A DNA stretch of 64,000 bases from NCBI GenBank assembly GCA_002482505.1, contig DLGD01000037.1, positions 2,888 to 66,887 of the forward strand, written 5' to 3'. The translations under genes were made by a program, and so were the position numbers. The DNA is from Christensenella sp. UBA7703. Its GTDB lineage: Bacteria > Bacillota > Clostridia > Christensenellales > CAG-138. Position 1 is the first letter of the stretch. Every line of letters starts with the position of its first letter. The notes under the pieces were generated by a model, which saw nothing but the letters and a program-made list of their open reading frames with translations, was not told the DNA's origin and did no database searches. This document shows, one piece after another, positions 9,303 through 63,420 of the stretch.

Positions 9303-10514
9303 TTGAGGAGGTTCTTTCATATTACACAGATGAAGCATAGGAAAGTACTTCTGAGCCATTCGCGCGCTGCAACTTCATCCGAAAGCGGGTTACAACAAAT
9401 GAAGGTATCTGAACGGATTGGCGTATATCTTACTACCTTTCAGGAAAAACACGCGCAGAGCGAGGCCAGGAGCGCCGTCAACCTGCTTGTGTTTCAGTTG
9501 ATCTATCTTGTGCTGATTTCGGCGACCATCATTCTCACCGCAATCGTCAATCGCGGAGAACGGCTGCTGTTCTACATGCTGCTGCTCGGCGGGTTGTTTA
9601 TCGTGATCTTTTTTTCGCTCCTGTTGAACCTGCTTGGAAAATATCGTGCGGCATCTTGGCTCACCGCGCCATGCATGGTCATTGGGCCCTGGCTGTCGAT
9701 CTTGCTCGATCCAACGGTGCTCGCGGGGGATTTCGTGCCGCTGATCTATGTGGCGATGTCGATTCAGCTCTGTTCGATTCTCCTGCGCGAACGGGTGACC
9801 ATCATCATCGCGGTTCTCCAACTGTCCGCAATCATTGCGCTCATCGCCGTTTCACCGGCGTTGCGGGCGATCAATTGGCCGAGTCTGGTGACGTTTATTG
9901 TCTTCACCTCTTTTATTGGCGTACTTTACGGTTTCTCCAGCAAACGGCAGATGCGGCAGATTGAAGAACAGCGAAACCAGCTGATTCTCGACGAGGCAAA
10001 GCTCCGCGCGCTCTCCGTGCGAGACCCGCTCACGGGGCTGTACAATCGACGCTACATGGAGGAAACATTTGACCGTGAAATCCAGCGTGCTATCCGCAAG
10101 CAGCAACCGCTTTCCGTCATCATGGCGGATATCGACGGGTTTAAGACTATCAATGACACCGTCGGGCATGTTTTGGGCGACAAGACGCTTATGACGGTGT
10201 CCGCGTTTTTGATGAAGAGTATCCGCGCATCGGATGTTGCCTGCCGTTTTGGCGGAGACGAGTTTTGCCTGATCCTGCCGGACTGTACGCTCGAGGAGGG
10301 GATCAAGCGCGCAAACACGCTCCGCTGCGCATTGGAAGGACTTGGCGATTCAAGCGGGGACGGTCTGGAGCAATTCACGCTTTCGTTCGGCGTTGCGGCG
10401 ATGCCGGAGGATGGCATGACGCGCGAGGCACTCATTGGCGCTGCGGACAGCGCGCTCTATTCCTCCAAGCGCGCGGGCAGAAACCGCGTCAACGGTATAC
10501 GAACGCATTCCTAA
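9303..10514 (+). CDS. Membrane-anchored diguanylate cyclase (GGDEF domain)
   Basis: About 6 N-terminal TM helices precede RDPLTGLYNRRY…ADIDGFKTINDTVGH…RASDVACRFGGDEFCLILP. The GGDEF active site is intact, and an RxxD I-site lies 5 residues upstream. The start is uncertain (TTG 9303, ATG 9330 or ATG 9399). Confidence 0.9.
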   Translation: MRRFFHITQMKHRKVLLSHSRAATSSESGLQQMKVSERIGVYLTTFQEKHAQSEARSAVNLLVFQLIYLVLISATIILTAIVNRGERLLFYMLLLGGLFIVIFFSLLLNLLGKYRAASWLTAPCMVIGPWLSILLDPTVLAGDFVPLIYVAMSIQLCSILLRERVTIIIAVLQLSAIIALIAVSPALRAINWPSLVTFIVFTSFIGVLYGFSSKRQMRQIEEQRNQLILDEAKLRALSVRDPLTGLYNRRYMEETFDREIQRAIRKQQPLSVIMADIDGFKTINDTVGHVLGDKTLMTVSAFLMKSIRASDVACRFGGDEFCLILPDCTLEEGIKRANTLRCALEGLGDSSGDGLEQFTLSFGVAAMPEDGMTREALIGAADSALYSSKRAGRNRVNGIRTHS

Positions 10515-23141: not shown

Positions 23142-23255
23142 ATTTGGGGAAAGATATATTATTTCTTTTTGGGCTTCGCCCAAACTCAAATAAACAAATA
23201 ATATGTGCTGATTCATTAATGATTTAGAAAACAATTAACTAAAAGATAAGAAAAG

Positions 23256-23317
23256 AAAAAAACCACCCCCTGCGAAAGCAAGAGGTGGAAGTCATACCGC
23301 GGAAGGAGCGAATTCCC
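23256..23317 (-). repeat. Hairpin/terminator module copy 1 (34-nt core identical to copy 2)
   Basis: The core GGTGGAAGTCATACCGCGGAAGGAGCGAATTCCC (23284-23317, plus strand) is identical to 23385-23418. On the minus strand an 11-bp stem (23263-23288) is followed by TTTTTTT. Confidence 0.7.
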
Positions 23318-23354
23318 GTGCGGGATTCGTTGCTTTCCTAAAAAGCAGCAATCT

Positions 23355-49567: not shown

Positions 49568-49646
49568 TCAATGCCTCAGCAAAACATTGTTTCGATGAAA
49601 CCCGCGCAGGAAAGCGGATTCCTTGAAAAATAACGTGGAATATGCA

Positions 49647-49675
49647 TTGTAAAACAAGAAGGATTACATTATAAT
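49647..49675 (+). promoter_or_regulatory. Near-consensus sigma-A-type promoter inside the ORF-free region
   Basis: TTGTAA (49647-49652), a 17-nt spacer and TATAAT (49670-49675). No convincing ORF follows for about 1 kb. Confidence 0.4.
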
Positions 49676-50452
49676 CGGAGATGTAACGAATTCATGTATG
49701 AATTTTCGATGCATAAGTAGCACGCTGCATCATTACATCTATCGTTTTTGATAGAAAAATTACGATGCAACAGGCAAATACACCGTGTTTGCGTGCATAA
49801 TCACTTGACAACTGTTGCGCTATTTGTTATTTTTATGACAATGCAGTTTTGTACTTGTGTACACAACCGCAAGAGCAGCATGGTGTGCAACCCCGCGCAA
49901 GACTGTTAATTATTCATGAACATTCACGGTTTTTTATGCAATTAGGCCGCAGTTCGGTTAATATGGTGAAAAGGGCTGAATATAGCGGTTTTTTGCAGAA
50001 TAGAAAGTCAAACCACCAGCAAGAGAAATTGGAGATTAATGAATATTAAGCAATGGTCATACGGATTGTCACGACCCAACTGTGTCACTTGAACAGACAG
50101 TAAACCGGATGCTCGGACGCCAGATATCAAACGGGCGAAAGAAGCGTATGCAATCGAACAGAATGAATATTCGTTTACTACCGGTGGTAGACATCGTCGA
50201 AGACGACACTAAATCATGATTTTTCCAAACGGTTTTCTGCAGACGGAGCTCAGTACCACGCGAGAATCATAGCAATAGTAATGTTCAACAGAAAACAGTT
50301 TCAGCGTGAACCGGTAGCCATTGATCGGATCATCAGCAAGCCTTCATCCTGTTTTCGCGCTATAGCGGCAAGGCGGGAAAGCAATGATCGAAATAGCCGT
50401 ACGGATCCTAGGAAAATACTCGTTGTACCTTGATAGCTGTATATAAGTGCGA

Positions 50453-50552
50453 TTCTTCCCACGCAAATGGCACACCCCGCGAAAGCGGGCGTCGCAAAGC
50501 TATAGGGCCTAACGGCAGAAGTGCCCACGGCAGCCAGTTTCCGAATGAAGAA
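50453..50552 (+). promoter_or_regulatory. c-di-GMP-I (GEMM-I) riboswitch aptamer candidate
   Basis: P1 is TTCTTC (50453-58) paired with GAAGAA (50547-52). The core ACGCAAATGGCACACC-CCGC-GAAA-GCGG-GCGTCGCAAAGC-TATAGGGCCTAA…GCCC…AGC parallels the conserved GEMM-I core (ACGCACAGGGCAAACC…GNRA…GGGACGCAAAGCC…GGCCUAA) as I remember it from Vc2. Confidence 0.75.
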
Positions 50553-50607
50553 CTCACGTTTCGCACAACCGTCCGAAAGACGGCTTGGTTGTGTTTCAAA
50601 AAAACGT

Positions 50608-50652
50608 AACGGTTCAAATTCATGAGGGATTTGAGCCGTTTTTCATTTTTTT
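50608..50652 (+). terminator. Intrinsic terminator of the riboswitch expression platform
   Basis: A 12-bp stem AACGGTTCAAAT/ATTTGAGCCGTT (one G-U pair) with a 9-nt loop is followed by TTTCATTTTTTT. A further hairpin CACAACC…GGTTGTG lies at 50564-50593. Confidence 0.8.
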
Positions 50653-50716
50653 GCTATGGCTATCATATAGATCCAATACCTTTGTGATGATTGGTGAAGA
50701 TTGAGGAGAAACAAGA

Positions 50717-51343
50717 ATGCAGGTTTTACTGCCGATTTTCTACGGCGCTGCACTGGGCGCCGCATTGGCGGTTCCCGCGCGGCTCCTCTCGGGATTATTG
50801 CTCAAGCGCCGCGGGTTTGAGGCGCAGATGGAACGCAGGCATTTCCTGATCATGCTTGCTGCTATGACGCTGACCGGCGGAGTGATCGGTTGGCGGGCGG
50901 GGGTAACCTTCCGCGGGCTATATCTGCTGCTTTTGCTGCTGGTTTCGGCCTGCGCGTTTTACATCGATGCAAAACATCGCGTCATTCCAAACGAGCTGTG
51001 GCTCGCCGTGCTGGCTTTTGCCCTGGCGTTTGGGATACCGGGCGCGATCAAGTTTCAGATTTGGCAATCTCTGTTGGGGTTTGCCGTCTGTTTCGTCATC
51101 TTCTTTATTCCGAGCTTGTTCGGGCAGAAGATTGGCGCAGGAGATGTAAAGCTGGCGGCGGCAATGGGCTTTGCGCTCGGGCTGACAGGCAGCCTTTATG
51201 CGATTGCTTGCATGGGCGCGCTGGTGCTGCTGTATGCTGTGCTCGATCAGAGCATGCCGCTGCCGCAACGACTCAAGACCATGATCCCGATGGGGCCGTT
51301 TCTCGCACTGGCGCTGGTCGCAATGTCGATCATACTCGTTTAG
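50717..51343 (+). CDS. tadV: A24-family prepilin peptidase (CpaA/TadV-type)
   Basis: A polytopic protein with the two aspartyl motifs FYIDAKHRVIPN and GAGDVKLAAAMG. RBS GAGGAGAAACAAGA. Confidence 0.85.
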   Translation: MQVLLPIFYGAALGAALAVPARLLSGLLLKRRGFEAQMERRHFLIMLAAMTLTGGVIGWRAGVTFRGLYLLLLLLVSACAFYIDAKHRVIPNELWLAVLAFALAFGIPGAIKFQIWQSLLGFAVCFVIFFIPSLFGQKIGAGDVKLAAAMGFALGLTGSLYAIACMGALVLLYAVLDQSMPLPQRLKTMIPMGPFLALALVAMSIILV

Positions 51344-51469: not shown

Positions 51470-51622
51470 ATGATGAAACTTTGGAAGAACGAAGAAGGCC
51501 AGGGCATGGTGGAATATGGTCTGATCATCGCACTGGTCGCGATCATCGTTATTGCCGGCATCTCGCTGCTGGGCAAGAACATCGGCAACCTGTTCAACAC
51601 GGTTGCAGCAAACATTAAGTAA
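51470..51622 (+). CDS. flp: Flp-family type IVb/c pilin 1 (50 aa; absent from the ORF track)
   Basis: MMKLWKNEEGQG|MVEYGLIIALVAIIVIAGISLLGKNIGNLFNTVAANIK. It has the classic Flp G/xxEY processing motif and a hydrophobic helix. RBS GGGAGG lies 9 nt upstream. Confidence 0.85.
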   Translation: MMKLWKNEEGQGMVEYGLIIALVAIIVIAGISLLGKNIGNLFNTVAANIK

Positions 51623-51664
51623 AATAACTACTTGGTAAGACACGCTAGAAGGAGGAATAAGAGT

Positions 51665-51817
51665 ATGAAGAAGTTTTTCATGAATGAAGAAGGCCAGGGC
51701 ATGGTGGAATATGGTCTGATCATCGCGCTGGTTGCAATCATCGTCATCGCCGGCATTTCGCTGCTGGGCAAGAACATTGGCAATCTGTTCAACACGGTTG
51801 CTGACAACGTCAAGTAA
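51665..51817 (+). CDS. flp: Flp-family pilin 2 (50 aa)
   Basis: MKKFFMNEEGQG|MVEYGLIIALVAIIVIAGISLLGKNIGNLFNTVADNVK. The predicted mature part differs from pilin 1 at only 2 residues. RBS GAAGGAGG. Confidence 0.85.
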   Translation: MKKFFMNEEGQGMVEYGLIIALVAIIVIAGISLLGKNIGNLFNTVADNVK

Positions 51818-51854
51818 CAAAATCCGGAAACATCAAATGGGAAGAGGGCGCGAA

Positions 51855-52010
51855 ATGATGAAAAGCTTCGTTCTCAACGAGCGGGGACAAGGTCTGGTGG
51901 AATACGGCCTGATCCTAATGCTTGTTGCTCTTGTCGTCATCGGCGGTCTTACACTGCTTGGCGGAAACGTAGCCGCGTTTTTTTCAAACGCCAGCAACCT
52001 TTTTCAATGA
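51855..52010 (+). CDS. flp: Flp-family pilin 3 (51 aa, divergent)
   Basis: MMKSFVLNERGQG|LVEYGLILMLVALVVIGGLTLLGGNVAAFFSNASNLFQ, with RBS GAGGG 6 nt upstream. Confidence 0.8.
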   Translation: MMKSFVLNERGQGLVEYGLILMLVALVVIGGLTLLGGNVAAFFSNASNLFQ

Positions 52011-52271: not shown

Positions 52272-52404
52272 GGCATCCTATTTCAAATTTTATATCGTAT
52301 GATGCAATATCCTCGGTATCTCTGGCGCTGCAATGAAACCGGATTGCGGCGCGAGAGATGCTGATGATTTCGTATCCTACCCTGCAAAAAGGAGGGGGAA
52401 AGTC

Positions 52405-52866
52405 ATGAGCCTGCTTGACCCGAGAACGGCAGCCAAACAACGGCGCAATCAAACCATCACAGAAAAAAAGCGGCTCCGCGAGAGCGGGCAGTCCGCCGTG
52501 GAAACGGCGCTCATGCTGCCGCTTCTTCTTCTGCTGATCTTCGGCATGCTGGAGATGGGTTGGCTTGCCACTACGCGGCAGACGATGGATACCATCACGC
52601 GGGAAGCAACGCGCGCCGGTGTGGTCGCTGCGAGTACAACCGCGAGCACGACCGCCGTGAACAATGCGGTAACGAGCAAAAAACCCGCATATATGAAAAA
52701 GACGATCACGGTCACCGTCACGTTCTCCAAGCCTTCGAGCTTTAAGGATGGGGACATCACCGTGACAACCGCCTACGACCTGCCACCACTCACGCCGCTG
52801 ACGGCGTTTTTGGTGCCTTCGGGGGTTTATCATATCGTATCGACCTACACGATGAAAGTTGGTTAG
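52405..52866 (+). CDS. tadE: TadE-like minor pilin/pseudopilin
   Basis: …ESGQSAVETALMLPLLLLLIFGMLEMG is the TadE N-terminal motif with a G/xxxxE processing site. The ATG at 52405 follows AGGAGGGGGAAAGTC. Confidence 0.75.
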   Translation: MSLLDPRTAAKQRRNQTITEKKRLRESGQSAVETALMLPLLLLLIFGMLEMGWLATTRQTMDTITREATRAGVVAASTTASTTAVNNAVTSKKPAYMKKTITVTVTFSKPSSFKDGDITVTTAYDLPPLTPLTAFLVPSGVYHIVSTYTMKVG

Positions 52867-52987: not shown

Positions 52988-53764
52988 ATGAAAAAAGTTG
53001 TCTTGTTCGCCCTGATCGCCGCGCTCTGCGCGGGCGCTCTGCTCTACTTTTATCTGGGCAATCTCGAAGCGCAGAAGCAGGTGAAGGTGGAGTATGACAA
53101 CGTGGTTGTTGCAGCGGTCGATATTCCCGCTTACACACCGATCACGAGCGAGATGGTCACATTCAAGCAGATACCGGCGGGCTATGCGCATCCGCTTGCG
53201 ACGCGTTCGGTCGAGGACGTGATTGGCTACGTGACCGAAAGCGCGATCCTTGCAGGGGAAGAGCTGCTTCCGTCAAAGCTCAAGCAGTTTGGCGAGACGG
53301 ACAGCGGGCTTTCCTATGTTGTGCCGGAGGGTATGCGTGCTGTGACGGTTGCGGTGGACGAAGTATCCGGTGTTGCGGGATTCCTACAGCGCGGAGATTA
53401 TGTGGACGTGATTTCCTATACCACAACCACCTATGTGCCGGCCAAAGCGCCCGTGGTTGCGGAGGGAGGAGAACCGACGGCGGATCAATTGCCGCAGACG
53501 CTGAGTACAACATTGGTTGCGGCGCAAAATGTCCGCGTTGCCGCGGTCGGCAAGTCGCTCTCAGGTGCTGCAGCCGCAACGGAAGACCAGGCGGCGGAGG
53601 GCTATAACAGCGTGACGCTGCTGCTCTCGCCGGAGGATACCATGCGTGTCGTGCAGGGCGCAAAGAGCGGCTCGATCGTTTTAATCTTGCGCGCATCCGG
53701 CGATCACACACCAAACACGCAGGAACCGGTCATCAACGACATGCTTTTGATTCGCGCGGAGTAA
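52988..53764 (+). CDS. cpaB: Flp pilus assembly protein CpaB/RcpC
   Basis: An N-terminal TM anchor is followed by a SAF-like segment (VVVAAVDIPAYTPITSEMV) and an RcpC-like segment (GMRAVTVAVDEVSGVAGFLQRGDYVDV). Confidence 0.85.
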   Translation: MKKVVLFALIAALCAGALLYFYLGNLEAQKQVKVEYDNVVVAAVDIPAYTPITSEMVTFKQIPAGYAHPLATRSVEDVIGYVTESAILAGEELLPSKLKQFGETDSGLSYVVPEGMRAVTVAVDEVSGVAGFLQRGDYVDVISYTTTTYVPAKAPVVAEGGEPTADQLPQTLSTTLVAAQNVRVAAVGKSLSGAAAATEDQAAEGYNSVTLLLSPEDTMRVVQGAKSGSIVLILRASGDHTPNTQEPVINDMLLIRAE

Positions 53765-53772
53765 GGGGAAAG

Positions 53773-54900
53773 ATGAACAGCATTCGCATCATGTTGGCAG
53801 CGAATTCTGCCGATGACAGAAAACTGATTTCAGGGCTATTGACGGATGAGGCGCTTCGCGTTGTCAGTTCGTTTCGCCCGGATGCCGACGGGCTAAAGAA
53901 AGCCTCTTCGCAACCAGCGGATGTGCTTTTGATCGGAACCCGCGCGATGCCAAGCCAGGAGCTGGATTTTGCAGAGCGGATGTTTACGACGCGAAGCGAC
54001 ATCACCATTCTTCTGCTTGCGCCGACGCTGGACAGCCGGACGCTTACCCGTGCGATGGAGTGCGGAATCGCACGTGTGATCGACATCGACAGCAGCGAGC
54101 ACGATATTTGCACACACATCATGACGGCGGCAAACCGGGACCAGAACCGCCGCAACAGCACACAGAAAATTGCAAGTTACGATTCCAAAATCGTCGCGTG
54201 TTACTCGCCCAAGGGCGGTGTAGGGAAAACCACGCTGGCGGTGAATTTGGCATATGCCCTCGCGACCATGAACAAAAAAATTGCGCTGATTGACCTGAGC
54301 TTACAGTTCGGGGAAGTTGGCGTTTTTTTGGATATCGCCAAAGGCGATACGATCGCGGACATGGTCGAGGAGCACTCGTTTGAACTCTCCACGATCAAGA
54401 GCTATCTCATCCGGCACCAAAGCGGCATTCAGGTCATGCTCTCCAGCAGTTCGCCGGAGTATGCGGAGCTGATTCAGCCGGTGCATGTCAACGCGATTCT
54501 TTCCTCGTTGCGGACGGAATTTGACTATGTCATCATCGATATGGGGGTGGCCTTTGGGGACTGCGCCATTGCCGCGATGGAGACCGCAGATACGATCCTG
54601 CTGGTGGTCAATGAGGACATCGCTTCCCTGCACGACGCAAAGCGCAGCATCAAGGTGCTAGAGGCGCTGAACCAACAGGACAAGCTCAAGATCGTCGTCA
54701 ACAAAGAGGGGATTTCGACCATCACGGTCAAGAACGTGGCAAATCTTTTGGAAGCCACGCCTGTGCTTGTGATCCCATATGATCTCAAGGCGGCTATGCT
54801 CGCGGTCAACCGCGGAATTCCGATGCTGAGCTGCGCGCCAAATTCGAAGGCGAGCAAAGAGATTCGCAACTATGCACACGCCCTGATTCGGAGGGTATAA
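53773..54900 (+). CDS. tadZ: TadZ/CpaE: atypical receiver domain + MinD/ParA-type ATPase
   Basis: The N-terminal receiver-like fold lacks the acceptor Asp (ADVLLIGTRAMP). The deviant Walker A is SPKGGVGKTTLAVNLA. TadZ with this architecture is known from Eubacterium rectale (established knowledge, from memory). Confidence 0.85.
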   Translation: MNSIRIMLAANSADDRKLISGLLTDEALRVVSSFRPDADGLKKASSQPADVLLIGTRAMPSQELDFAERMFTTRSDITILLLAPTLDSRTLTRAMECGIARVIDIDSSEHDICTHIMTAANRDQNRRNSTQKIASYDSKIVACYSPKGGVGKTTLAVNLAYALATMNKKIALIDLSLQFGEVGVFLDIAKGDTIADMVEEHSFELSTIKSYLIRHQSGIQVMLSSSSPEYAELIQPVHVNAILSSLRTEFDYVIIDMGVAFGDCAIAAMETADTILLVVNEDIASLHDAKRSIKVLEALNQQDKLKIVVNKEGISTITVKNVANLLEATPVLVIPYDLKAAMLAVNRGIPMLSCAPNSKASKEIRNYAHALIRRV

Positions 54901-54902
54901 TC

Positions 54903-56213
54903 ATGGGACTCTTGGAGCGCCTGGACAAAAAGACACCAACTCCGCAGGCAGGTGCCGCGGCGCAGGCGGAGGCGGACGAAGCCGCAGCCCTGCGTGAGCG
55001 GGTTCACTATCAGGTTGTAGAATCGCTCAACAAACGCGATGAAAAACACAGCGGTGGAACGAACGAGGCGGAAACGCGCGCCATCATCGAGTCCGCGTTG
55101 GAGCAAAATGCGTCCGCCATGGCTCGGCCGGAGCGCAACCGCATCGCAATAGAGATATACGATTCCATTCGCGGCCTCGGCCCGCTGGAAAAACTCCTGG
55201 CCGATGAAACCGTCAGTGAAATCATGGTCAATGGCGCGAAGCAAGTGTTTGTGGAGCGCAACGGCAAGCTGGCGCAGAGCGACGTCACATTTTATGACAA
55301 CGAGCAATTGCTCAATGTCATCGATCGTATCGTCTCCCCGTTGGGCCGTCATATCGACGAAGCAAACCCGATGGTAGACGCGCGCCTGCCCGATGGCTCC
55401 CGTGTCAACGCGGTCATCGCGCCACTTTCGCTGAAAGGCCCGTTGCTGACGATCCGAAAGTTTTCCAAAACGCCGCTGACGGTGGAAAACCTGGTCAACT
55501 TTGGAAGCCTTACGATGAAGATGGCGGCGTTTCTCGAAGCCTGCGTCAAAGGCCGGCTCAATGTCGTCGTCTCCGGCGGTACCGGCAGCGGAAAAACCAC
55601 GCTGCTCAACGTTCTCTCCGCCTATATCCCATATGACGAGCGTATCGTCACCATCGAAGACGCGGCGGAGATTCAGCTGCAACAGCAGCATGTGCTGACG
55701 CTGGAAGCAAGACCCGCAAACCTGGAAGGAACCGGACAGATCACCATTCGCGATTTGGTTCGAAACGCGCTGCGTATGCGACCGGATCGCATCATCGTTG
55801 GCGAGGTGCGCGGCGGCGAAGCGCTGGATATGTTGCAGGCGATGAACACGGGCCACGACGGCTCGCTGACCACCGGCCACGCGAACTCCACGCGCGATAT
55901 GCTCGCAAGGCTTGAAACAATGGTGCTCATGGCGGGTATGAACTTGCCCGTTTCCGCAATTCGCCAGCAGATTGCCTCTGCAATCGACATCATCGTGCAG
56001 CAATCGCGTATGCGAGACGGCAGCCGTAAGATCATCGGCATCAGCGAGGTGATCGGAATGGAAGGCGACGTGATTGTGACGCAGGAGATCTTCACCTACG
56101 ATTATGGCGATGGGCGCACACCGGGTCGCTTCCGCGCAACAGGAATCAAGCCGCGCTGTGCCGATAAGCTTTTGGCGGCTGGTGCGGGGCTCAAGGACGA
56201 GTGGTTCCATTGA
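54903..56213 (+). CDS. tadA: TadA/CpaF secretion ATPase (VirB11/GspE superfamily)
   Basis: Walker A VSGGTGSGKTTLLN, an Asp box/Walker B IVTIEDAAEI…RMRPDRIIVGEVRG and a His box GHDGSLTTGHAN are present. Confidence 0.95.
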   Translation: MGLLERLDKKTPTPQAGAAAQAEADEAAALRERVHYQVVESLNKRDEKHSGGTNEAETRAIIESALEQNASAMARPERNRIAIEIYDSIRGLGPLEKLLADETVSEIMVNGAKQVFVERNGKLAQSDVTFYDNEQLLNVIDRIVSPLGRHIDEANPMVDARLPDGSRVNAVIAPLSLKGPLLTIRKFSKTPLTVENLVNFGSLTMKMAAFLEACVKGRLNVVVSGGTGSGKTTLLNVLSAYIPYDERIVTIEDAAEIQLQQQHVLTLEARPANLEGTGQITIRDLVRNALRMRPDRIIVGEVRGGEALDMLQAMNTGHDGSLTTGHANSTRDMLARLETMVLMAGMNLPVSAIRQQIASAIDIIVQQSRMRDGSRKIIGISEVIGMEGDVIVTQEIFTYDYGDGRTPGRFRATGIKPRCADKLLAAGAGLKDEWFH

Positions 56214-56283
56214 TATTGACGCTCGTATAACGAACGATAGATACTCTGCGATCTTCCGGATCAAGAAGCTGTTTAGAGAGGGG

Positions 56284-57222
56284 ATGAAACACATGATTCG
56301 TGCTTTGGTCGTTCTGGCGTTTGTCATCGCGTGTTATTTCATCTTCTATCTGATTGCGGCTGCGCGCACGAAAGACAAGCGCAAGATGGATGACCGCGTG
56401 CGCGAGCTTTTTGAGCTCAACGCAAACGAGAGCGCGGACAGGCGCATCAGTAAAAATACAAAGCGCAAAAATCCGCTCCGTCTGGAGCAGATTGCAGACG
56501 AGCTGTATGTTGCCGGCGTCGCGCTGCGCGCGGAAGAGTTTATCACGATCTGGATTCTCATGGGCGCGGTGATTCCCGCAATTGCGCTGTTTCTTGGCGC
56601 GCCGACGACGGTCTGCATCGGGCTCGTCATCGTTGGCGCCGCAGCGCCGATTTCGTGGGTAACCATCAAGCGAAACAAGCGCCTTGCGATTCTGGGGTCT
56701 CAGCTTTCGGATGCGCTCGCAATTATCTGCAATGCGCTTCGCGTCGGGCAGTCGTTTCAGTCTGCAATGAAAAACGTTGCGGACGAGATGGAGGAGCCGA
56801 TCTCGCGTGAGTTTATGCGCGTTTACCGGGAAACACAGTATGGCATGCCGCTTGAAACCAGCCTTGCCAGGCTTGTGAACAGGACGAAGAACCCCGATCT
56901 GGAGTTGATGTCCTCCGCGGTCATCATTCAGCGGCAGATCGGCGGCAATCTTGCCGTCATCCTGCAAAATATTTCCGACACGATCAACCAGCGCATTCGC
57001 CTGCGCGGAGAAATTCGAACCATGACCTCCGCCGGACGCATGAGCGGCTATATCATCGGCGGTTTGCCGGTCGTGATTATACTGCTGCTGATGTTCATCA
57101 ATCCGGGTTATATCGATATGTTTTTTACGACGTCGTCCGGCAGAATCATGCTGCTTATCAGCGCGGTTTTGGAAGCAATCGGCTTTGCGGTCGTCAACAA
57201 AATTGTCAATATTAAGCTCTAA
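56284..57222 (+). CDS. tadB: TadB-like type II secretion system F-family platform protein
   Basis: A TM helix is followed by a T2SSF domain (LSDALAIICNALRVGQSFQSAM…) and two C-terminal TM helices. The start is ATG 56284 or 56293; the ORF-track start at 56104 overlaps tadA and is rejected. Confidence 0.8.
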   Translation: MKHMIRALVVLAFVIACYFIFYLIAAARTKDKRKMDDRVRELFELNANESADRRISKNTKRKNPLRLEQIADELYVAGVALRAEEFITIWILMGAVIPAIALFLGAPTTVCIGLVIVGAAAPISWVTIKRNKRLAILGSQLSDALAIICNALRVGQSFQSAMKNVADEMEEPISREFMRVYRETQYGMPLETSLARLVNRTKNPDLELMSSAVIIQRQIGGNLAVILQNISDTINQRIRLRGEIRTMTSAGRMSGYIIGGLPVVIILLLMFINPGYIDMFFTTSSGRIMLLISAVLEAIGFAVVNKIVNIKL

Positions 57223-57237
57223 AGGAGGAGATGCCGC

Positions 57238-58161
57238 ATGAGACTTGTGGTTTTGTCGTTTACGATTGCGGTGTTCCTTGGATTTGTGGCGCTGTTACAG
57301 AGCTATGGGCAGAAGAGCGACCAGATGAGGAAGCGCTTCAATCAAGTAGCGGAGGCGGAGCGCTCGTATAGCGATGAAGAACTCAAGAAATCGTTTACCG
57401 AGCGTGTGCTCAAGCCACTGATACGGCGAATCACAGAGGGAATCCGCCGCTCGGCCGGAAACCGCCCCGTAGGGCAAAGCAAAGCGACGATGAAACTTGA
57501 TAAGCAACTCAAAGCATCCGGCCTCGCGTTGTCGCTGCAGGAGTTCACCTTTATCAAGAGCATGCTGATCCTCGTGTTTTTCGTGGTTGGCATCGCGCTG
57601 TTTCTGCTCCTGCCGATCAATTTCCTTCTGCGGCTGGTTGTCCTTATGGTGATGCTGAATATTCCGCTCTATGGAACCAGCTATTTTCTCACCTCGCAAG
57701 TGAAAAACCGCAAAGAGAGCATTTTGCGTGAGCTGCCGGAGACGATGGATGTGTTGATGGTCAGCGTGGAGGCAGGGCTTGGACTGGACGCAGCAATTGT
57801 GCGCCAATATGCGAAGAACAAATCCGTCGTGCTGACGGAGCTGAACAACGCGATTCGCGAAGTGCAGATGGGTGTTCCGCGCAGGACCGCGCTCAAAGAG
57901 ATGGCGGATCGCTGCGATGTCAAGGAACTTACCGCGTTTGTCACCGCGCTGCTGCAGGCGGATCAACTTGGCGTGCCGATCAAAAACGTGTTGGACGTGC
58001 AGGCGGAGCGGCTTCGTGTAGAGCGCAAGCAGATGATTCAGGCAAAGGCCGCAAAAGCACCGATCAAGATCATGCTGCCCACGGTCGCGTTTATTTTCCC
58101 TGTGATTTTCATTATTCTGCTTGGTCCCGCCGTGGTAGAGCTCATCTCTACGCTGAGCTAA
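57238..58161 (+). CDS. tadC: TadC-like type II secretion system F-family platform protein
   Basis: T2SSF domain (LRELPETMDVLMVSVEAGLGLDAAI…) with flanking TM helices. RBS AAAGGAGGAG. Confidence 0.8.
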   Translation: MRLVVLSFTIAVFLGFVALLQSYGQKSDQMRKRFNQVAEAERSYSDEELKKSFTERVLKPLIRRITEGIRRSAGNRPVGQSKATMKLDKQLKASGLALSLQEFTFIKSMLILVFFVVGIALFLLLPINFLLRLVVLMVMLNIPLYGTSYFLTSQVKNRKESILRELPETMDVLMVSVEAGLGLDAAIVRQYAKNKSVVLTELNNAIREVQMGVPRRTALKEMADRCDVKELTAFVTALLQADQLGVPIKNVLDVQAERLRVERKQMIQAKAAKAPIKIMLPTVAFIFPVIFIILLGPAVVELISTLS

Positions 58162-58246
58162 CGCAAGACAAACGAAGAAAAGTTGTGCCGCAGGAAGAAA
58201 TTGACTAACCTTGCGGAAGAAAAAAGCATCCGACAATGAGGCAAGA

Positions 58247-58588
58247 ATGAAGACGGTTCAGATCGCAAAAAATGGCGAAACCATCGCGACAGTTTGGCAT
58301 GCAACAGGATATTTTGCACGATTGCGCGGCCTGCTGGGGCGGAAACTGGAAGCGGACGGTGGCATGTTGCTCACGCCTTGCAGCGAGATTCACACCATCG
58401 GTATGGGCTATGCAATCGACGCACTGTATCTGGATAAAAACGGGCGGGTGCTGCGGATAGACGAAGCGCTTGCGCCCGGCAGAGTATTGCCGCGGCAGCG
58501 CGGCGCAAGGCACGTTCTGGAGTTGCCGGAAGAAAGTGCAAAACGGCGCGGACTGACGGCGGGAGACATACTGGAGGTAATCCGATGA
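58247..58588 (+). CDS. DUF192-like small protein
   Basis: …ARLRGLLGR…GMLLTPCSEIHTIGMGYAIDALYLDKNGRVL…HVLELP matches the DUF192 pattern as I remember it. It lies 86 nt after tadC, and its stop overlaps the next start (ATGA). Confidence 0.7.
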   Translation: MKTVQIAKNGETIATVWHATGYFARLRGLLGRKLEADGGMLLTPCSEIHTIGMGYAIDALYLDKNGRVLRIDEALAPGRVLPRQRGARHVLELPEESAKRRGLTAGDILEVIR

Positions 58589-59547
58589 ACGAACCAACTG
58601 AGCGTAGCGTAGAGGGAATCGATTCCCTGCGCAGCCGCATGGACTCCGATGCGCGGTTTCGCAGAGCGCTATCCGGCTACGACCCGCAGGATGTGCGCGC
58701 TTATGTGGAAAACGTAAAGCGTATCTTTGCGCAGCAGGCAAAGGCAGCCAAACTGGAACAGGAAAACCTGATTGCCCAGCTGGATTGCGCAAAGAGCGAG
58801 ATTCAGGCGCGCAACTACGGCATAAAAAAGTTTAAAGAACTGCTGGTGGAACGCGAAGCGCAGCTGAACAACGCAAACACGCGCATCAACGCGCTGCTGC
58901 AAACCGTGAAATCCCACGGCGCAGAACGCGAGGAGCTTGAGCGCCTGCGGCAGGAGGCGGCAAGCAGCGGAAACGCGGAGCGCATCGCTTCGCTGGAAAA
59001 AGAAACCCAGCAGTTGCGGTCTGCGGTTGCCCAGGCTTCCAACCTCGTCAACACATGGAAAGCGGAGCGCGAACGATTGATGGAGGAAAACGACCGTCTG
59101 CGTGAGGAGATCTATTACCTTCGCGCGGTGACGTCAAGACAGATGGAAGTGGAGCCGGTCCACGCCTATACTCAGCAGGGCGCTTACGAAGGCAATTTTG
59201 ATCAGCCGATGAGGCCGATGAGGCCGGACGTCATCACGGCGGAGAACCGCTTTGTTCAGCAGAGCGCACAGCAGGTGATGCAGCAACCCGCTCAGCAACC
59301 CGTTCAACAGCCTGTTCAGCAGCCCGTGCAACAACCGATGCAGGCGCAGGCTGCCAACCAACAAAGAGAGTTTTCACAGGTTGCCGATAAACTCGCGACA
59401 ATGTTTGCCGAGGCATACCAGTTGATCAGCCAGTTTAAGTCCAACCTGGATGCGCAACCGGAACCCCAGTCGCGGCCGGCCCAGCCCGCGATGCAGATTT
59501 TGCGTCCGGAAGCTGTAAATGCGGATGCGTTCTATCCAAGAAGATAG
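58585..59547 (+). CDS. DivIVA-domain coiled-coil protein with Q/P-rich repeat
   Basis: FRRALSGYDPQDVRAYVENV is a DivIVA-type N-terminal motif. It is followed by a long heptad-like coiled coil and the repeat QQPAQQPVQQPVQQPVQQPMQ. Confidence 0.7.
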   Translation: MNEPTERSVEGIDSLRSRMDSDARFRRALSGYDPQDVRAYVENVKRIFAQQAKAAKLEQENLIAQLDCAKSEIQARNYGIKKFKELLVEREAQLNNANTRINALLQTVKSHGAEREELERLRQEAASSGNAERIASLEKETQQLRSAVAQASNLVNTWKAERERLMEENDRLREEIYYLRAVTSRQMEVEPVHAYTQQGAYEGNFDQPMRPMRPDVITAENRFVQQSAQQVMQQPAQQPVQQPVQQPVQQPMQAQAANQQREFSQVADKLATMFAEAYQLISQFKSNLDAQPEPQSRPAQPAMQILRPEAVNADAFYPRR

Positions 59548-61911: not shown

Positions 61912-63420
61912 ATGAAGCAAGCGAAGGAAACAAAGCAAATCGAACCGACGCAACAGGAGGCGGGCGCGCTTGTGCTGCCACAACAAAAGAAGAGTGTTAA
62001 TGCGATCTTGATTCTGCTGGTTTTTCTGCCGTGCCTCGTTCTAACGCTTCGTTTGGACAACGACATCTGGTTTTTGCTCAACAGCGGGCGGTATGTGCTC
62101 CAACATGGAATCCCGACCATGGAGCCGTTTACGATGCATCAGGATTTCCATTTTGTCATGCAGCAGTGGCTGTCTGCCACGATTTTTTGGAGTATCTATG
62201 CAAAATTCGGTGCGGCTGGCATCCTGGCGCTCGTGTTCGTGGTCTTCTGCGCAACGGTGTTTGTGCTCTATCGGCTGATTTCGCTGCTCTCCGGCGGCAA
62301 CGAAATTGCAACGTTCATCACGGCGATGATCGCATCCTCGGCGCTGAAACCCGCGATGATCTCTAGGCCGATGATCTTCACGATGCTGATTCTGATCTGC
62401 GAGCTGTATTGCGTGGAGCAGTTCATCCGTACGAAAAAGCCGCTGTGGCTGCTGCCGCTGCCTGCTTTCTCCGCGCTGATGATCAATCTTCATGCGGCGA
62501 TGTGGCCGATACAGTTCGTCATCCTCTTGCCGTATTGCATCGATGCATTCCGGTTCAAGTTCCTCTTTCTTGAAGGAGAAGGCTACCCCAAACGCTTTTT
62601 CTTTCCCGCGCTCGTGCTGATGTTCCTTGCGGGATTTTGTAATCCATACGGTTGGAGCGCGATGAGCTATGTCTTCCGATCCTATGGATTCCAGGAGATC
62701 GGCATCGTTTTAGAGATGCAGCCGGTCGACATCAACAATGCCTCCGGCATACTGGTCTTCGGCTTGTTTTTCCTTCTGCTTGCGTTCTACTTGCTGAAAA
62801 AAGAACGCAGTACGCGGCTGCGGTTTGCGCTGCTCTCGCTGGGCACGGCGGTGCTGACGCTCTCTTCGCTCAGGAGCTATTCGCTATTCGCCGCCTGCGG
62901 AATCTTTCCGCTTGCGTATTTCTTGCGGGATGTAACGCTGCCGCAGAGCAGGATCCAATCGCAAAAGGGGGTGCTTTGCCTTCGCGCCGTGCTGCTTGTG
63001 CTGGTTGCCGTCGTGGTGGGCGTGCTCGTTATCAGCCGGGTGAGCGAGTTTGATGAAGCAAAGGAAACATCAAAGGCAGCAAACGCGGTGAACTACTTGC
63101 TGGAGCAGGAGAACACGGATGACATGATTCTCTATACGGGGTATAACGACGGCGGATATGTGGAATACCGGGGGCTAAAACCCTACATCGACCCCAGGGC
63201 CGAGGTGTTTGTAAAGAAGAACAATCAGGTCAAGGATGTCATGAAGGAGTATTACGAACTCGAATCCGGCAAGCTGTATTACAAAGATTTTCTGAATACA
63301 TACGGCTTTACCCATCTTCTTTTAACCCGCGATGAAATGCTGTATGTGATGCTCCCGCACGATGCAGACTATGAGTTGGTTTACGAGGATGACGCGTTTT
63401 TAGTCTATCGGTTAAAGTGA
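61912..63420 (+). CDS. Polytopic membrane protein, GT-C-fold glycosyltransferase-like (hypothetical)
   Basis: 502 aa with about 11-12 TM helices. A DND motif (LRLDNDIWFLL) follows directly after TM1, as in the first external loop of GT-C enzymes. There is a soluble ~120-aa C-terminal domain, and the gene is divergent from the gtrA unit. The assignment is inferential. Confidence 0.5.
   Translation: MKQAKETKQIEPTQQEAGALVLPQQKKSVNAILILLVFLPCLVLTLRLDNDIWFLLNSGRYVLQHGIPTMEPFTMHQDFHFVMQQWLSATIFWSIYAKFGAAGILALVFVVFCATVFVLYRLISLLSGGNEIATFITAMIASSALKPAMISRPMIFTMLILICELYCVEQFIRTKKPLWLLPLPAFSALMINLHAAMWPIQFVILLPYCIDAFRFKFLFLEGEGYPKRFFFPALVLMFLAGFCNPYGWSAMSYVFRSYGFQEIGIVLEMQPVDINNASGILVFGLFFLLLAFYLLKKERSTRLRFALLSLGTAVLTLSSLRSYSLFAACGIFPLAYFLRDVTLPQSRIQSQKGVLCLRAVLLVLVAVVVGVLVISRVSEFDEAKETSKAANAVNYLLEQENTDDMILYTGYNDGGYVEYRGLKPYIDPRAEVFVKKNNQVKDVMKEYYELESGKLYYKDFLNTYGFTHLLLTRDEMLYVMLPHDADYELVYEDDAFLVYRLK

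Follow-up and report, generated by a model that had tools for sequence, protein, structure and literature searches.

Does the leader of the Tad/Flp pilus operon in Christensenella sp. UBA7703 contain a riboswitch, and if so, in which direction would the second messenger move expression of the pilus? The question arises from a stretch of DNA (GenBank assembly GCA_002482505.1, contig DLGD01000037.1), analyzed here over its full 64,000 nucleotides (nt) and referred to as the window, in which an initial annotation, made from the sequence alone, proposed a class I cyclic di-GMP (c-di-GMP) riboswitch with a terminator ahead of a Gram-positive Tad/Flp operon. The analyses described below indicate that the element almost certainly belongs to the c-di-GMP-I (GEMM-I) riboswitch class, with binding of the ligand predicted from its sequence. 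They further suggest that it probably acts as an OFF switch at the level of transcription termination, such that c-di-GMP would repress the Tad pilus genes, a polarity deduced from modeled folds. Coordinates of all features are collected in Table 1.

Identification of the aptamer rests upon a comparison of the whole window with all 4227 families of Rfam 15, performed with cmscan at the curated gathering thresholds. A single match was obtained, namely to RF01051 (c-di-GMP-I), with a score of 73.2 bits (gathering score, 35) and an E-value of 1.9e-12, the alignment covering model positions 1-87 of 87, not truncated, with a posterior probability of approximately 1.0 throughout. The boundaries of this match are identical to those originally assigned to the aptamer, and the sequence from 50453 to 50652 reads as it had been described; the covariance-model search proposed at that time has therefore returned a strong match. 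No match to c-di-GMP-II (RF01786) was obtained at the gathering threshold anywhere in the window.

Each element of the family consensus has its counterpart in the window aptamer, the architecture of which is that of a type 1 GEMM element, in which two hairpins stand upon the basal helix P1, the first being capped by a GNRA tetraloop and the second bearing the receptor motif. Both the GNRA-capped hairpin and the receptor-like segment of P3 recognized in the initial annotation are in place, with the receptor position occupied by CCUAAC/CACGG; this segment differs from the canonical CCUAAG/UAUGG at three positions, and CAUGG or UAUGG is found in homologues. Equivalents of the ligand-contacting nucleotides of the Vc2 aptamer are, according to the family-model alignment, all present: G50469 (G20) lies directly 5' of the G-C pair opening the first hairpin, A50496 (A47) directly 3' of that helix, and just past the second hairpin sits C50541, which probably corresponds to C92. 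In Vc2 itself, G20, A47 and C92 contact the two guanines of c-di-GMP (PMC5888326).

Homologous loci were collected from genomes via CpaF (80 loci) and from metagenomes via the prepilin peptidase (29 loci). The nearest genomes are metagenome-assembled genomes (MAGs) of the Bacillota, the closest of all being a groundwater MAG, 'Firmicutes bacterium HGW-Firmicutes-9', an unclassified member of the Bacillota whose CpaF is 91% identical. Rfam detected c-di-GMP-I aptamers upstream of Tad genes in L003, L004 (two), L005 (two) and L006, and a covariance model built from these Rfam-detected aptamers, R1, added three more in L017. No aptamer was found by R1 in the other 75 CpaF loci, so that only five loci, all of the Bacillota, are positive; a wider taxonomic spread was considered and rejected, loci from Chloroflexota, Actinomycetota, Planctomycetota and other groups in the series L009-L082 being without an aptamer. 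Similarly, one aptamer is present in each of 14 metagenome loci that have enough upstream DNA and a peptidase 58-89% identical to that of the window, and R1 found none in metagenome loci where the peptidase is 40% identical or less. In total, 24 aptamers were obtained from 20 sources (the window, and 23 aptamers in 19 related Bacillota loci), all of them on the operon strand. In L003-L006 and the 14 metagenome loci, approximately 90-260 nt separate the last aptamer from the peptidase gene, and the aptamers of L017 precede Flp genes.

Across the 24 aptamers, 97.3% of alignment cells are paired and 11 of the 17 modeled pairs display compensatory changes, values reached by 0 of 500 shuffles, with controls in which pairing partners were slid along the sequence being paired in 23-42% of cells; fitting of the alignment to the model favors the modeled structure. 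An independent MAFFT/RNAalifold run on seven sequences returned compensatory changes at 8 of the 17 pairs. Covariation in P2 and P3 among orthologous leaders, upon which the original proposal had been made to depend, is accordingly found. The covariance-model E-value together with this conservation with covariation in homologues excludes a chance match.

Between the aptamer and the first gene, the leader contains the elements expected of a termination-based expression platform. The two P1 strands named in the initial annotation are both present and pair in the minimum-energy fold, with a possible extension of P1 through GUG (50447-49) and CAC (50555-57); P1 pairs are kept in 98.5-100% of cells across 11 leaders, yet are invariant. 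Both of the hairpins described 3' of the aptamer were likewise found and the U tract was confirmed, the only correction being that the second stem consists of 14 pairs, including G-U, rather than 12. The first of these hairpins, designated here the platform hairpin, shows compensatory changes at 5 of 12 pairs among the 11 close leaders. The second, identified by a terminator scan as a hairpin spanning 50608-50640 followed by TTTTCATTTTTTT, is separate from the aptamer, with which it has no overlap, and lies 55 nt downstream of P1. It belongs to the minimum-energy structure of the full leader, and in the 11 leaders 96% of its cells are paired, six pairs varying on one side and one on both. As a whole, the 221-nt leader folds better than 200 of 200 dinucleotide shuffles (z = -3.4). 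The start codon of the prepilin peptidase gene follows the end of the U tract by 65 nt, as stated at the outset, and is preceded by a GAGGAGA sequence conserved in close homologues, distant leaders having a different purine-rich site in its place.

The polarity of the predicted switch is suggested by folds computed for transcripts of increasing length. For transcripts up to 50615, the minimum-energy structure consists of the aptamer with P1 and the platform hairpin; with a 3' end at 50622-50630, it is replaced by an antiterminator; and once the transcript reaches 50640, it returns to P1 and the terminator. The antiterminator comprises 16 pairs in three helices (AUGAA/UUCAU, GAACU/GGUUC and ACGUUU/AAACGU), encloses the platform hairpin, and before the terminator 3' arm emerges has an advantage of 3.0 kcal/mol over the state in which the terminator 5' arm is unpaired. 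None of 500 shuffles attains its duplex energy of -11.2 kcal/mol, its helices are 87-96% paired, though invariant, within the 11 close leaders, and the terminator 5' arm has no strong alternative partner other than the P1 3' strand with the adjoining linker. As the antiterminator uses both the P1 3' strand and the terminator 5' arm, it excludes the ligand-locked aptamer as well as the terminator, the layout expected of an OFF switch.

The mechanism that we propose on these grounds would operate as follows. At low c-di-GMP, the P1 3' strand (GAAGAAC) and the linker would pair with sequence just upstream of and including the terminator 5' arm, and with the antiterminator built around the platform hairpin, polymerase would read through to the genes encoding the peptidase, the Flp pilins and the assembly proteins. 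With c-di-GMP bound, P1 (UUCUUC/GAAGAA) would be locked and the terminator 5' arm freed, the 14-bp terminator would form, and transcription would end near 50645-50652. High c-di-GMP would, by this route, lead to lower Tad pilus expression.

Orthologous leaders offer a means of comparing this arrangement across species. A terminator is present in 16 of 16 such leaders, as well as after the aptamers in L004, L005, L006 and L017a/b, and none was found for L017c. Antiterminator duplex energies beat most shuffles in all 16 leaders (0-57 of 500 shuffles reach the observed value), the state in which the terminator 5' arm is paired is favored by 0.2-7.2 kcal/mol, and in the minimum-energy folds of truncated transcripts, GGUUC is joined to the P1 3' strand or the linker in 10 of the 16. 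The sequence of the linker helix varies by group with complementarity kept (ACGUUU/AAACGU, GCUUUGAAA/UUUCAAGC, GCUC/GAGC, GCCUUGA/UCAAGC), and duplexes of non-cognate combinations are weaker, this covariation between groups representing few independent lineages. In L004b, L005a, L005b and L006, the terminator 5' arm pairs with the conserved aptamer 3' strand (the GUUGCC/CCGAAU region), and in L017b with the aptamer 3' end and flanking sequence.

Several observations weigh against an OFF switch of this design. In the full-length fold, the terminator state is the more stable, at -68.9 kcal/mol versus about -59 for the antiterminator, a difference of approximately 10 kcal/mol that requires read-through to be kinetic. 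The three antiterminator helices are invariant in the 11 closest leaders and hence show no covariation there, the support being drawn instead from covariation in approximately five sequence groups that are more distant, and from energy calculations. In the truncated fold of L003, the terminator arm pairs with an aptamer strand other than the P1 3' strand, a pairing that in the model implies the same switch logic, and the truncated folds of L089-L092 and L097 leave GGUUC unpaired with either the P1 3' strand or the linker. Conserved promoter-like sites are also present 620-780 nt upstream of the aptamer. Lastly, c-di-GMP usually promotes attachment, and repression of an adhesive pilus runs counter to this tendency.

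It is this last consideration that lends the opposite polarity its appeal. Were ligand binding to prevent the terminator, c-di-GMP would induce Tad pili, in keeping with its general promotion of attachment and with the Tad pilus being an adhesion organelle. Type IV pili of Clostridioides difficile are indeed induced by c-di-GMP through a class II ON switch (PMC11477304), and among 322 GEMM instances, Weinberg et al. noted 78 whose terminator shares sequence with the last aptamer hairpin on its 3' side, an arrangement predictive of an ON response (PMC1950547). That design is inapplicable to the leader described here, because its terminator is a separate hairpin that lacks such an overlap. Moreover, the only strong partner available to the terminator 5' arm would be sequestered upon ligand binding, the fold in which the aptamer and P1 are formed contains the complete terminator, and no anti-antiterminator arrangement was found in any leader; ON polarity is in our judgment unlikely. 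Very unlikely, too, is that the element is a decayed or non-regulatory relic whose terminator serves as a constitutive attenuator of transcripts from upstream promoters. Such a reading would accommodate the far greater stability of the terminator relative to the antiterminator in the full-length fold, as well as the one non-canonical C-C pair at the base of the first aptamer hairpin, but this mismatch is retained in all 11 close relatives and is therefore tolerated rather than a sign of decay. The Rfam score, in addition, is twice the gathering threshold, all ligand-contact bases are intact, and in species whose peptidases share only 58-89% identity, the aptamer, the platform hairpin and the terminator are all retained, with compensatory changes.

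The identity of the ligand deserves separate consideration. If the aptamer answered 3',3'-cyclic GMP-AMP (3',3'-cGAMP, or c-AMP-GMP), or were promiscuous, the operon would not be specifically controlled by c-di-GMP, and the suggestion gains some substance from the presence, in several orthologous Tad leaders, of A at the position equivalent to G20, a change common in c-AMP-GMP-responsive (GEMM-Ib) variants (PMC9481103). This marker is absent from the window aptamer, which, along with its 10 closest relatives, has G at the position, as do c-di-GMP-selective representatives, and the window also encodes a GGDEF cyclase whose active site is intact; we regard the chance of such a ligand here as very slight. 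Because of the G at this position, the window element is expected, on sequence grounds, to be c-di-GMP-selective. The A20 form occurs in L094-L097, L100, L004b, L005b and L017a/b, and A at this position is alone insufficient for predicting specificity. Both forms may coexist within one leader: L004 (2271-2720) and L005 (1244-1645) each contain two complete riboswitches in series, G20 followed by A20, each with its own terminator. In L017 (1714-2469), two aptamers share one terminator before a small Flp-like open reading frame (ORF), and the third lies directly before the next Flp gene with no obvious terminator. That the Tad pilus is switched OFF by c-di-GMP in one lineage of uncultured, Clostridia-like Bacillota and that this switch has been rewired in sister lineages, by the G20-to-A change or by G20/A20 tandems, is a tentative and rather unlikely proposal. 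Returning to the window element itself, a c-di-GMP-responsive OFF switch is the reading that we favor.

Where transcription of the leader begins is a related matter. A sigma-70 scan identified no promoter directly upstream of P1, and the conserved block adjoining P1 is without canonical -35/-10 spacing, for which reasons a canonical promoter at this site was rejected; the block could possibly represent a non-canonical or extended -10 promoter, an operator or part of the RNA. By direct reading, L006 and L004 have a canonical promoter (TTGACA-17-TATATT/TAGTCT) in the same relative position. Further upstream, between 49640 and 50000, approximately 360 nt of the intergenic region are about 70% conserved in five homologues, L083-L087. 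Two sigma-70-like promoters are conserved on the + strand of this stretch (TTGTAA-17-TATAAT at 49647-75; TTGACA-17-TATTTT at 49805-33), and no terminator was found between these and the riboswitch, from which it follows that the operon's real promoter may lie 620-780 nt upstream of the aptamer and that the stretch may be the regulated promoter region of the operon.

Other features of the same stretch include inverted repeats (ATTACAT at 49663-69 with ATGTAAC at 49681-87, and GTTAC-N3-GYAAC near 49756-68) and an invariant 20-nt run, ACTGTTAATNATTCATGAAC, at about 49902-21. Comparison of 49570-50460 with known RNA families at E-values up to 1 yielded no match. A structured RNA was rejected as the source of the conservation, since RNAalifold, applied to the conserved part, returned 0 compensatory pairs and -2 kcal/mol, as were small ORFs (with starts such as MNIHGFLCN), which have no Shine-Dalgarno sequence, are interrupted in frame in the window, and show conservation that is not codon-like. 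The conservation more likely acts at the DNA level, through promoters or operators.

Table 1. Positions of leader elements and operon genes in the window, and of A20 aptamers in homologous loci.
Feature	Position	Strand	Basis or remark
Conserved block ACCTTGATAGCTGTATAT, directly 5' of P1	50427-50444	+	Kept in 11 close homologues, partly in 4 distant ones
P1 5' strand, UUCUUC	50453-50458	+	Pairs with 50547-52 in minimum-energy folds
c-di-GMP-I (GEMM-I) aptamer core	50459-50545	+	RF01051 full-model match
First aptamer hairpin, GAAA cap at 50481-84	50470-50495	+	Family-model alignment
Second, receptor-bearing aptamer hairpin; CCUAAC 50508-13, CACGG 50526-30	50498-50539	+	Family-model alignment
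Predicted antiterminator 5' strand: AUGAA 50545-49, GAACU 50550-54, ACGUUU 50556-61	50545-50561	+	Truncated-transcript folds
P1 3' strand, GAAGAA; switching sequence, shared with antiterminator	50547-50552	+	Folds; overlaps 50545-50561
Platform hairpin, inside antiterminator and present in both states	50563-50594	+	Minimum-energy folds
Predicted antiterminator 3' strand: AAACGU 50602-07, GGUUC 50611-15, UUCAU 50619-23	50602-50623	+	Overlaps terminator 5' arm
Intrinsic terminator: stem 50608-21/50627-40, loop 50622-26, U tract UUUUUCAUUUUUUU	50608-50652	+	Terminator scan
Shine-Dalgarno GAGGAG (50703-08) and ATG (50717) of first gene	50703-50719	+	Direct sequence reading
Prepilin (type IV leader) peptidase, CpaA/TadV-like	50717-51343	+	PF01478, E 4.9e-15
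Flp pilin	51470-51622	+	PF04964, E 1.7e-11
Flp pilin	about 51665-51817	+	PF04964, E 2.4e-10
Flp pilin	51837-52010	+	PF04964, E 2e-07
TadE-like	52333-52866	+	PF07811
CpaB/RcpC	52988-53764	+	PF16976
TadZ-like ParA ATPase	53773-54900	+	PF13614/ParA
CpaF/TadA ATPase	54903-56213	+	PF00437
TadB	56104-57222 (ORF)	+	PF00482; true start probably later
TadC	57238-58161	+	PF00482
DUF192 gene	58211-58588	+	Pfam
320-aa protein	58585-59547	+	No significant Pfam family; ORF at operon end
A20 aptamer, L094	2184-2294		
A20 aptamer, L095	428-538		
A20 aptamer, L096	583-690		
A20 aptamer, L097	71-178		
A20 aptamer, L100	2181-2289		
A20 aptamer, L004	2509-2614		Tandem leader
A20 aptamer, L005	1443-1546		Tandem leader
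A20 aptamers, L017	1714-1818 and 1825-1929		Tandem leader

The genes downstream of the riboswitch are, as judged by their predicted protein families, those of a monoderm-type Tad/Flp (type IVc) pilus locus, and Pfam bears out the earlier description of a Gram-positive operon led by the prepilin peptidase. No family match to a secretin was obtained among the operon ORFs tested, as fits a monoderm host. The order riboswitch, peptidase, Flp, TadE, CpaB, TadZ, CpaF, TadB, TadC, DUF192 is conserved; L003-L006, L017 and L001 share the order of the operon genes, and L003 likewise has three Flp genes. The middle Flp gene of the window appears in the ORF list as 51632-51817, encoding 61 amino acids (aa) from an upstream TTG, and an ATG near 51665 is its likely start. 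Just past the Tad operon lies a 502-aa ORF (61912-63420) with no significant Pfam family; this and the 320-aa ORF are conserved beside the Tad locus in L003, at 64% identity each, and in L001 a Tad-domain protein (PF13400) follows the 502-aa ORF. Upstream, the operon is preceded by genes for an S26 signal peptidase and a 702-aa CHAP/NlpC-P60 surface protein, and then by an AT-rich intergenic region of 890 nt.

The GGDEF protein at 9303-10514, credited with an intact active site from the beginning, has the RFGGDEF motif and a RASD I-site five residues upstream of it, following a multi-pass hydrophobic N-terminal half. From these motifs, the organism probably makes c-di-GMP; its gene is 40 kb from the riboswitch, and no specific link between the two is implied. 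A second or degenerate aptamer in the window was considered and rejected, as model R1 gave only 19 bits at 23243-23314 (+ strand), a score judged to reflect chance, and a permissive Rfam scan of this stretch returned no c-di-GMP match and only sub-threshold, terminator-like matches on the minus strand. Among these, a suhB/mmgR match at 23249-23332 (- strand; 28.3 bits versus a gathering score of 41) comprises mainly a GC-rich hairpin and U tract and is probably just a terminator. Elsewhere, a cobalamin riboswitch (128 bits) was noted at 10861-11039 of L012, an unrelated Firmicutes MAG, approximately 2.7 kb downstream of the end of CpaF, and has no bearing on the element described here.

The c-di-GMP-I class has been defined since 2007-2008. 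Vc2, its structural reference, comes from a proteobacterium, is not known to have an intrinsic terminator and acts on translation. Shared between Vc2, located in the leader of V. cholerae VC1722, and the window element are the three-helix junction, the GNRA tetraloop with its receptor, and the G20/A47/C92 set (PMC5888326); unlike Vc2, the window element has a Gram-positive-style terminator/antiterminator platform. Closer parallels are found in C. difficile, where c-di-GMP riboswitches of class I turn transcription OFF and those of class II turn it ON, one of the latter lying before a type IVa pilin gene (PMC11477304). Specifically, Cd1 (Cdi-1-3), upstream of flgB, resembles the window element in combining an RF01051 aptamer and an intrinsic terminator with a long surface-appendage operon in a clostridial host, and it has the class I OFF polarity that is predicted here. 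Cd1 controls flagella, so that its repression fits the motile-to-sessile rule, whereas the target in the window is an adhesive Tad/Flp pilus for which the polarity is a prediction. Cdi2_4, upstream of pilA1, also acts in a clostridial species upon genes of a type IV-family pilus through transcription termination, and differs in its GEMM-II fold (RF01786), its ON polarity, and its type IVa rather than Tad/type IVc target. The analogy to pilA1 drawn in the initial annotation stands with respect to riboswitch control of a pilus and would fail with respect to direction, if the polarity here is OFF as predicted.

Association of the class with Tad genes is itself not new. A GEMM element upstream of cpaA, in more than one instance, was listed in 2007 (Table 2 of Weinberg et al., PMC1950547), and these instances, like that of the window, lie 5' of a Tad prepilin peptidase family gene. 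The list gives no organisms, platforms or polarity, and the instances described here, by comparison, come from uncultured Bacillota and have a conserved antiterminator/terminator platform. Tandem c-di-GMP-I riboswitches are common, 347 doublets and 12 triplets being on record (PMC9481103), and the homologous Tad leaders of L004, L005 and L017, with two or three aptamers each, may be likened to them; the window has a single aptamer. In the searchable literature, we found neither an analysis of a c-di-GMP riboswitch at a clostridial Tad/Flp locus nor experiments addressing the control of any Tad locus by a riboswitch. The window element is, in itself, an ordinary and well-conserved c-di-GMP-I riboswitch that a standard Rfam scan detects, and its association with cpaA was already known in 2007; what is somewhat unexpected is that c-di-GMP is predicted to repress an adhesive pilus.

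To our knowledge, Tad pili have barely been studied in Gram-positive anaerobes, and the element described here offers a concrete and testable connection of c-di-GMP to the Tad (type IVc) pili of these organisms. Should the OFF polarity be true, the pilus would belong to a low-c-di-GMP program, as do flagella in C. difficile, which would suggest that it serves exploration or brief contact at an early stage and not the settled biofilm. The 24 orthologous leaders, which include single, tandem and A20 forms before one conserved operon, constitute a natural series in which the evolution of ligand specificity and dose response can be followed. If the rewiring suggested for sister lineages is also true, one and the same pilus operon would answer to c-di-GMP in certain species, and elsewhere to cGAMP or to both messengers.

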